A stretch of DNA of 64,000 bases from a virus (Duplodnaviria > Caudoviricetes), in the IMG/VR virus record IMGVR_UViG_2791355159_000004, positions 10,229-74,228 of that record. One strand, written 5' to 3'. The notes below the pieces were generated by a model, which was not told the DNA's origin, ran no database searches, and saw nothing but the letters and a program-made list of their open reading frames with translations. Of the stretch, positions 25,218-26,104 are shown piece by piece. Position 1 is the first letter of the stretch, and each line of letters opens with the position of its first letter. The position numbers were made by a program, and so were the translations under genes.

Positions 25218-26104
25218 AAAAAAGCCCGCCTTACACGGGCATGAATTCGTTCAAGATGAAAGGGAAATCCAGAATGCCAGCCTAGCTGGCTTTGCCACCA
25301 TATAGCTTTTGCAACAGATAGATACTACGGGACACTTTTGCTCTCAACACAGCACGATACAGGTGTGGACACAAAAAAAAGCCCGTCACTCGAGGAGAGA
25401 TGACGGGCAACGTGGTAGATAGCGAGTTGCTTTTAGAATCCCACCCATGACACACGATTTATCTGGCTAGTCTACTCATAGTAACAACCGAGCTTCACTA
25501 TACAAGCGTAGCGGTTGATTAAATTAGCCATTACGCTGCAGAGACAAAAAAGCCCGCTCAGTGGCGGGCAAAGTGGTTCAGCACAGGATTAACCTGCAAA
25601 TCTCGTACAGCTTACGCGCAACATCCTGTATGCGTGTAGCCATTACAGGTTAGGAGTGTGTGAGGTCTTGCGATGTGGGAATGGTCCTACAAGTCATGAA
25701 GTTAGGATTGTTCTGGCAAGAGGAGTTGGCTTAAAAAAGCCCGCTCTATGGCGGGCAAGAAGACACAAATTCCAATGGGGAAAGCCATCGCACACAGCAA
25801 ATAATGTGCTTTCAAAGCATAGGCTACTGCCGCTACGTTGTTGTGAAATATAGCGTAGTAATTTTACTCGTCAGGATTATGTTAGTTGATGTATTGAAAA
25901 GAAAAAAGCCCGCGCATAGCGGGCCAACCAGCTTTATTTCATATTGTCTTGTCGTTATGGGTGCCACTGAATACCAGAGCAAAGAGGTTAACGGCGACAT
26001 AGCTGATAACTTTAGAGCAGCATCAAAAAAGCCAGCACGAGGCGGGCAGAGATGCTGTATAAAGTCTTTTTTAGCCTTCAGGCCATGTCTCTTTGGACAT
26101 TATG
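25218..26104 (-). ncRNA. Array 1: six tandem putative sRNA genes
   Basis: GCCC-type hairpin plus U-run terminators at 25218, 25373, 25546, 25733, 25902 and 26025, each with an upstream -10-like hexamer; no credible ORFs. Confidence 0.72.

Follow-up and report, generated by a model that had tools for sequence, protein, structure and literature searches.

A predicted small RNA family carried by lambdoid prophages and complementary to the DsrA, RprA and ArcZ site of the rpoS leader

In stationary-phase and stress physiology, sigma-S acts as the master switch, and to our knowledge the small RNA (sRNA) activators of its translation are only three core sRNAs (DsrA, RprA and ArcZ) and one phage RNA, StxS. 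Of the three hairpins of DsrA, hairpin 2 pairs with hns, and the segment that pairs with rpoS lies in and after hairpin 1. Hfq-dependent sRNAs of enterobacteria are usually built from a 5' hairpin, an A/U-rich linker and a Rho-independent terminator with a U-tail. Here, a predicted sRNA of about 73 nucleotides (nt) with this build is described at positions 25218 to 25290, minus strand, of a 64,000-nt stretch (the window) of the IMG/VR virus record IMGVR_UViG_2791355159_000004 (record positions 10,229 to 74,228). Because the exposed middle of this sRNA complements the leader spot of the host activator RNAs, the phage probably switches on the host stress response through it. Judged from the sequences compared below, the sRNA is likely to represent a new mobile family of Hfq-type sRNAs working like DsrA and StxS.

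The closest described system is StxS. In the accessible part of its description, StxS is an Hfq-associated, trans-acting sRNA of Shiga toxin (Stx) phages that pairs with the leader site of DsrA, RprA and ArcZ and raises RpoS in lysogens, and its activation of rpoS through this same seed was proven with compensatory mutations (PMC7547250). It arises as a by-product of the late promoter PR', is terminated at tR', is processed by RNase E to 74 nt and also represses stx1 (PMC7547250, same part). In RNA interaction mapping, rpoS is reported as the dominant partner of StxS. The present sRNA resembles StxS, as far as that account goes, in its predicted target site and in being phage-encoded. The two are set apart by origin and position: the present sRNA is a separate unit with its own terminator and lies on the other side of cI, by the early-left genes, not between PR' and tR' downstream of Q. 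At the PR'-tR'-type position of this prophage, where Stx phages make StxS according to the same part of the source, a different RNA match was found:
37946-38121, plus strand: STnc100 match (Rfam, 59.3 bits), in the late region between putative Q-like and lysis genes
As a partner of the rpoS leader site, the STnc100 match did not rank with the best. Further prophage sRNAs, AgvB, AsxR and HnrS, are short, terminator-ended sRNAs of enterohaemorrhagic Escherichia coli that lie on lambdoid prophages, often in several copies (PMC12197685 and PMC13502914, accessible parts). They are prophage cassettes rewiring host global regulators, as is predicted for the present sRNA; whereas AgvB and AsxR are sponges and HnrS represses hha (same parts of PMC12197685 and PMC13502914), the present sRNA mimics an activator sRNA. 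No description of the present family was found in the main texts of the literature on DsrA- or RprA-like, prophage or IraP-linked RNAs. A phage-encoded rpoS activator is already known in kind from StxS, and the present sRNA is a new family of that kind.

The sRNA unit comprises the following features, given with its presumed promoter:
25218-25290, minus strand: predicted sRNA of about 73 nt with 5' hairpin, rpoS-complementary linker and intrinsic terminator; presumptive 5' end
25276-25290, minus strand: stem-loop 1, GCCAGC-UAG-GCUGGC, with 5 covarying pairs in the family
25275-25241, minus strand: full linker AUUCU-GGAUUUCCCUUUCAUCUUGAACGAAUUC-AU, read from the sequence
25259-25270, minus strand: seed half 1, GGAUUUCCC(UUU), complementary to AAGGGGAAAUCC of the rpoS leader
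25255-25258, minus strand: middle of an unpaired linker insert, from computed duplex structures
25243-25254, minus strand: seed half 2, UUGAACGAAUUC, complementary to GAAAUUCGUU(A)CAA of the rpoS leader
25240-25224 (stem) and 25223-25218 (U6), minus strand: intrinsic terminator GCCCG(U)-loop-(G)CGGGC + U6, from a terminator scan
25297-25302, minus strand: candidate -10 hexamer TATGGT, from which the start would fall near 25290
25309-25355, minus strand: upstream motifs of one subgroup, GTATCTA around -35 and CGTGCT around -60, from 26 family loci set side by side

The plus strand at 25243-25270 was re-read as GAATTCGTTCAAGATGAAAGGGAAATCC, exactly as an earlier note on this DNA had given it, so the minus-strand RNA contains GGAUUUCCCUUUCAUCUUGAACGAAUUC. 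Between the 5' hairpin and the GC hairpin with its U6, the linker reads GGAUUUCCC-UUUCAUC-UUGAACGAAUUC. In the computed duplex with the leader, a 6-nt bulge, UUCAUC (about 25260-25255), overlaps the end of seed half 1; the unpaired insert is missing or shorter in most relatives, and TTGAACGAATT is the linker block most conserved across the family. Three hairpins are predicted for the 73-nt RNA, whose fold has -24.9 kcal/mol (z = -2.2); the middle one, between the seed halves, is weak and is not conserved in the family. Most family members carry a TAnnnT hexamer at the same alignment position as TATGGT (TATGGT, TATGCT, TATAGT, TATCCT or TAAGGT), and TTGAGA-17-TATCTA is a possible alternative promoter by its sequence. 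Rfam yielded no family match at the sRNA locus, either at gathering thresholds or at E <= 10.

The host rpoS gene was located on contig C18 of the host genome, where the 24-mer GAAATTCGTTACAAGGGGAAATCC is part of the nlpD 3' end and precedes the ATG by 83-106 nt:
L001 1254-1277: leader site GAAATTCGTTACAAGGGGAAATCC in the host leader sequence
L001 1360: ATG of rpoS
The site is identical letter for letter to that of E. coli K-12, within leaders that are 90% identical over the aligned region. The E. coli strand from which the earlier note had argued was thus correct, and the site, whose absence from the host leader would have spoken against the proposal, was searched for and is present. Within the genus it was found without mismatch in 74 of 75 genomes and with one mismatch in the remaining genome. 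The host also encodes Hfq, RprA (Rfam RF00034, 81.9 bits, contig C75) and ArcZ (Rfam RF00081, 62.4 bits, under the family cut-off, contig C64). DsrA (Rfam RF00014) had no match in the whole host genome at E <= 0.001 and was found in none of the 75 genomes of the genus.

Complementarity between linker and leader was strong by several measures. In all 4.96 Mb of the genome, AATTCGTT-N(0-14)-GGGAAATCC has two occurrences, one in the rpoS leader and one at the sRNA locus, and its reversed control has none; together with the bulged duplex, this bears out the two half-sites that had been proposed in the right order around an internal bulge. The linker-leader duplex reached -26.3 kcal/mol against a shuffle mean of -9.2 (z = -6.1; none of 300 shuffles as good), and the cofold gain was -17.4 kcal/mol against -9.1 +/- 2.3 for shuffled linkers (none of 100 as good). 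As an internal control, the terminator-ended units of the prophage were compared, and only one of the eight, the sRNA unit, was complementary to the leader, with unit C borderline (18 of 300 shuffles). In the same duplex calculation the phage RNA gave -26 to -30 kcal/mol, E. coli DsrA -29.5, host RprA -20.2 and host ArcZ -17.8, so that the computed pairing of the phage RNA with the leader is stronger than that of host RprA and ArcZ.

The earlier note had classed the RNA as DsrA/RprA/ArcZ-type, and this holds for the shared leader site and the comparable duplex energy; it does not hold at the level of the Rfam models of these sRNAs, none of which matches the locus. The DsrA model (RF00014) found nothing in the window at its gathering threshold of 60 bits and nothing at the sRNA locus at E <= 10. 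DsrA and the phage RNA engage nearly identical leader nucleotides in the computed duplexes, with energies that are close, and the two RNAs share the motif GAUUUCC...AACGAAUU. However, the predicted fold of the phage sRNA, with 5' hairpin, seed linker and terminator, departs from the layout of DsrA and has no counterpart of its hns-pairing hairpin, and while DsrA sits at the core rcsA-dsrB locus, the phage sRNA is mobile and phage-borne. RprA is closer in layout, with its seed between a 5' structure and the terminator and its pairing split around an internal loop, as in the phage sRNA. RprA and ArcZ share the leader site but are unrelated to the phage sRNA in sequence, and their models match contigs C75 and C64 and not the sRNA locus.

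The decisive evidence for the sRNA reading is comparative. A BLAST search gave short matches to the sRNA in 7 of 60 relatives, all of the same genus, and the aligned relatives share the 5' hairpin, the blocks GGATTTCCC and TTGAACGAATT, and the terminator. A covariance model, R1, was built from seed-bearing family sequences. It scored 79.6 bits over 25211-25308, the one strong copy in the own genome. At E <= 0.01 it matched 27 of 75 genomes within the genus, some of them in two or three copies, and in about 21 the match reached E < 1e-6. Beyond the genus, R1 matched in at least 2 of 150 other genera of the family, a lower bound because the filters were strict and 27 candidates were scored per genome. 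One member is present in a record titled Candidatus Pantoea communis. Megablast of the locus against E. coli genomes gave no match, and the matches of blastn in a phage collection were confined to other parts of the region and to 30-nt terminator stretches without significance (E 0.2-0.8). A scan of 596 Gb of contigs with an 18-base pattern gave at least 119 matches, with one family member (L135) among the 80 matches listed; the pattern is too short for 596 Gb, and the scan is no measure of the distribution of the family.

A family with 5' hairpin, leader-complementary linker and terminator is conserved with covariation across genomes. In the 32-row alignment, 87.7% of cells were paired compared to 78.3% in shuffles (0 of 500 as high) and 33-44% in slid controls. 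Both hairpins covary, and 10 of 13 pairs change on both sides: in stem-loop 1 this applies to 5 of 5 pairs, with 80.8% of cells paired, and in the terminator helix to 4 of 7 pairs, with 94.9% of cells paired. These counts lean towards structure because the alignment was fitted to the model. What the family conserves in the linker is precisely the pair of blocks that complement the leader. Against the leader, 25 of 28 distinct family linkers beat 95% of their own shuffles, and 17 of the 28 beat all 300. Split-seed linkers like that of the own copy occur in L034 and L037 (family loci are denoted by L numbers), and shorter linkers in L022, L030 and L040. The linkers of L024, L033, L036 and L045 are near-continuous antisense to the leader at -29 to -35 kcal/mol, and their fit to the leader is better than their fit to the R1 consensus.

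Flanks of the family loci fell into many unrelated groups. At least 10 of 26 family loci were phage-linked, 8 of the 26 had flanks similar to those of the own prophage, and four IMG/VR viral contigs carried family members. L056 is a lambdoid prophage (RecT, cI-like S24 repressor, O and P) with the sRNA in the same early-left position, while the sRNA of L037 lies beside a tail-tip protein and that of L052 beside Rha and AcrF8-like genes. In a 3-kb view some copies look chromosomal, lying beside an ABC permease, a nitroreductase, an insertion sequence transposase or umuC; the L024 copy lies between yoaB-like and yoaA-like genes, named by eye from their translations. Two loci carry genes resembling IraP, which stabilises sigma-S (Pfam description of PF10796):
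L056 7201-7578, plus strand: IraP-like anti-adaptor gene (PF10796), inside the lambdoid prophage
L057 7159-7509, minus strand: IraP-like anti-adaptor gene (PF10796)
These matches (E about 5e-26 and 5e-25) lie 0.8-0.9 kb from the sRNA, in opposite relative orientations, and the L056 case places a phage-borne IraP homologue beside the sRNA. The own genome holds two IraP-like genes. About 0.03 chance IraP neighbours would be expected among 27 three-kb loci, by a rough estimate that takes about 2 genes per genome; common descent of the two cases is possible. This proximity to IraP-like genes thus gives an independent functional indication of sigma-S, and it suggests that phages may act on sigma-S at two levels. 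Taken with the site, the family and the duplex, all computational tests agree with what the earlier note had proposed, a phage-borne RNA predicted to pair with the DsrA/RprA/ArcZ leader site.

Under the proposed mechanism, the immunity and early-left region of the lambdoid prophage holds a stand-alone gene for a trans-acting sRNA of about 73 nt, and the two parts of the RNA's linker, GGAUUUCCCUUU and UUGAACGAAUUC, would bind the upstream strand of the inhibitory hairpin in the rpoS leader. Extended complementarity to this strand, which marks the activator class, was found. The 24-nt leader site so paired would be that of DsrA, RprA, ArcZ and StxS, and pairing would free the ribosome-binding region in an anti-antisense manner and perhaps also limit premature Rho termination, resulting in more sigma-S synthesis in lysogens. 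Hairpin opening and Rho counteraction are proposed by analogy with DsrA, RprA, ArcZ and StxS, from established knowledge and the accessible part of PMC7547250. The free leader has its start codon paired with UUCGU; in the modelled cofold with the sRNA the start codon is unpaired, and this release is consistent with anti-antisense opening, although the leader fold itself is not robust. We infer that the sRNA is transcribed, that it starts at the candidate start point and depends on Hfq, that the pairing occurs in vivo, and that the effect is activation.

Several observations weigh against this reading. As many as 106 of 71,620 genome windows (60 nt; contigs C1-C8), or 0.15%, pair with the linker as well as the leader does, and among 15,990 40-nt segments of the 64-kb window the sRNA locus came only 11th in pairing with the leader site. 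Since duplex energy alone does not single out the pair, the single-genome case is suggestive and not compelling. The computed fold of the free leader was not robust (z = -0.28), so that the case for an opened ribosome-binding site comes from what is known of E. coli and not from the calculation. The middle hairpin predicted for this copy joins the seed halves by weak pairing, which leaves part of the seed occupied. A simple sigma-70 consensus scan of the sRNA region did not call the TATGGT promoter, and the -35 position is non-canonical when the upstream sequences of the 26 family loci are compared. Within the family, the linkers of L026, L032 and L044 were only weakly complementary to the leader (p > 0.05), the surveyed genomes are related to one another, and the enrichment of the seed among R1 matches is partly circular because R1 was trained on seed-bearing sequences. 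The interpretation was accepted mainly because the antisense variants leave the model consensus towards the leader, which R1 cannot impose.

Four other explanations were weighed against the activator reading. The RNA could be a real sRNA with its main job elsewhere, on other phage or host mRNAs, its rpoS complementarity being secondary or unused in vivo. Since sRNAs usually have several targets, as with the repression of stx1 by StxS (PMC7547250, accessible part), and since the energy ranking does not single out the rpoS leader, such a role deserves some weight, as does the resemblance of neighbouring array units to sponges or seed-swapped relatives (e.g., the weak AgvB-like match at 25901-25960). 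It is nevertheless rather unlikely: no alternative target stands out, the perfect complements of 11-14 nt to the linker (44 places in the genome, those of 11-13 nt at about chance numbers) include none that is compelling, and it is the two leader-complementary blocks that the family conserves, with variants moving towards the leader sequence. An origin by divergence, in which a true DsrA homologue moved onto mobile elements instead of evolving independently, is unlikely. The two RNAs share GAUUUCC...UAACGAAUUU and a terminator, both have a TAAGGT- or TATGGT-type -10, DsrA is missing from all 75 genomes of the genus, and R1, run on the E. coli rcsA-dsrA region, has its best match exactly at dsrA. 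That match, however, is not significant (12.6 bits, E = 0.34) and does not run seed to seed, Rfam DsrA found nothing in the genome at E <= 0.001 or at the locus at E <= 10, and the architecture differs, DsrA having three hairpins and its seed at the 5' end. Likeness to DsrA is explained by convergence, because a shared target forces a shared motif.

Very little probability is given to a transcript of the opposite strand, for instance the 3' untranslated region of the open reading frame (ORF) at 25011-25213, acting as a decoy that soaks up RprA and ArcZ and lowers sigma-S. The plus strand does read like the leader, the small ORF recurs beside the sRNA in L039, and target-mimicking phage anti-sRNAs such as AgvB exist (PMC12197685, accessible part). 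Yet the terminator U-run is found on the minus strand only, the conserved TAnnnT hexamer lies upstream on the same strand, most family members have no plus-strand ORF and lie in unrelated flanks, and host RprA and ArcZ pair only moderately even with the true leader. It is just as improbable that the locus is non-functional, a neighbouring transcript's terminator joined to a chance match; the middle of the array is full of terminators, but the family occurs in 27 of 75 genomes in many different flanks, with covariation in both hairpins and leader complementarity kept.

If the activator reading is true, a further, sequence-unrelated and mobile activator family would be present in about one third of the species representatives of a genus without recognisable DsrA, and Stx phages would not be alone in hijacking the rpoS leader, which would emerge as a strategy that phages use repeatedly. 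The naturally occurring seeds, which range from split to continuous antisense, would then form a ready-made series on the pairing needed for activation.

The sRNA lies in a prophage with the following features:
20829-20900: tRNA (tRNA match), at the left end of the prophage
21051-22265, plus strand: integrase (phrog_1, E = 4.3e-69), adjoining the tRNA
22822-23580, minus strand: queuine tRNA-ribosyltransferase PHROG match (phrog_887, E = 3.2e-95)
25011-25213, plus strand: convergent small ORF (phrog_5948, PHROGs E = 2.8e-11), ending 5 nt before the sRNA 3' end
25218-26117, minus strand: array of six units, each ended by a terminator, with the plus-strand ORFs on one side and the two genes downstream of cI on the other
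26132-27384, minus strand: two-gene unit of 238 and 181 amino acids (aa; phrog_19868, phrog_21691), directly downstream of cI
27693-28406, minus strand: cI-like repressor (phrog_4, E = 3.3e-52)

The tRNA, the integrase, the cI-like repressor, the tail genes to the right of cI and a partial tRNA-like 3' end near 63620 (read by eye) together identify a lambdoid prophage of about 43 kb, and the cI-like repressor places the sRNA in its immunity and early-left region. In lambda, the slot directly downstream of cI is occupied by rexAB. The phrog_887 gene is possibly part of a 7-deazaguanine DNA-modification system. The homologue of the phrog_5948 ORF found in L039 also stands beside the sRNA there. 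For a neighbouring segment, the nearest phage DNA match was Pantoea phage AH07. A stretch of about 75 nt at 24769-24842 is 77-84% conserved in phages of Citrobacter, Yersinia, Pectobacterium, Escherichia and Klebsiella, where it is mostly unannotated, and Rfam gave no match for it.

Within the array the sRNA is the last of the six units, and the terminator scan of 24500-26300 found 8 terminator-like sites where 1.4 were expected. The array holds the repeat families D1 and D2. Its other units scored 16-22 bits with R1, and leader complementarity was confined to the sRNA unit. Five further terminator-ended units lie upstream of the sRNA at 25373-26117 on the minus strand. Among the units, those at 25537-25631, 25724-25827 and 26016-26105 (16-21 bits with R1) look as if they had a similar scaffold with other seeds, and that at 25901-25960 has a sub-threshold match to AgvB (anti-GcvB; 23.6 bits, E = 0.12). 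In a related prophage from public DNA assemblies, the flanks 24808-25223 and 26122-27494 are kept and the array between them is replaced, with 568 letters in place of 25224-25543 and 25570-26121 nearly absent. This replacement between kept flanks fits cassette-like turnover.

A wider model may be sketched tentatively, and it is more doubtful than not. Temperate phages of the genus would carry exchangeable sRNA cassettes on one scaffold of promoter, 5' hairpin, seed and terminator, grouped into arrays at the right prophage end and in the immunity region, and would use them to take over host post-transcriptional hubs. The rpoS cassette would supply the DsrA-type input that is absent from the genus, and some copies would travel with an IraP-like anti-adaptor, raising sigma-S through both translation and stability.

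Many minus-strand terminator-like units were also seen in the gene-poor region 60500-62800, after the tail-fibre genes. There, 60516-60566 nearly repeats 25373-25427, and two motifs occur in three copies each, near 60668, 61294 and 62733 and near 60776, 61398 and 61990 (all read by eye). Weak R1 matches were found at 60766-60845 and 61388-61498. The right prophage end, 62941-63502 on the plus strand, carries a 78-aa ORF and a UmuD-like ORF, homologues of which lie beside the sRNA members in L028, L030, L034 and L049.

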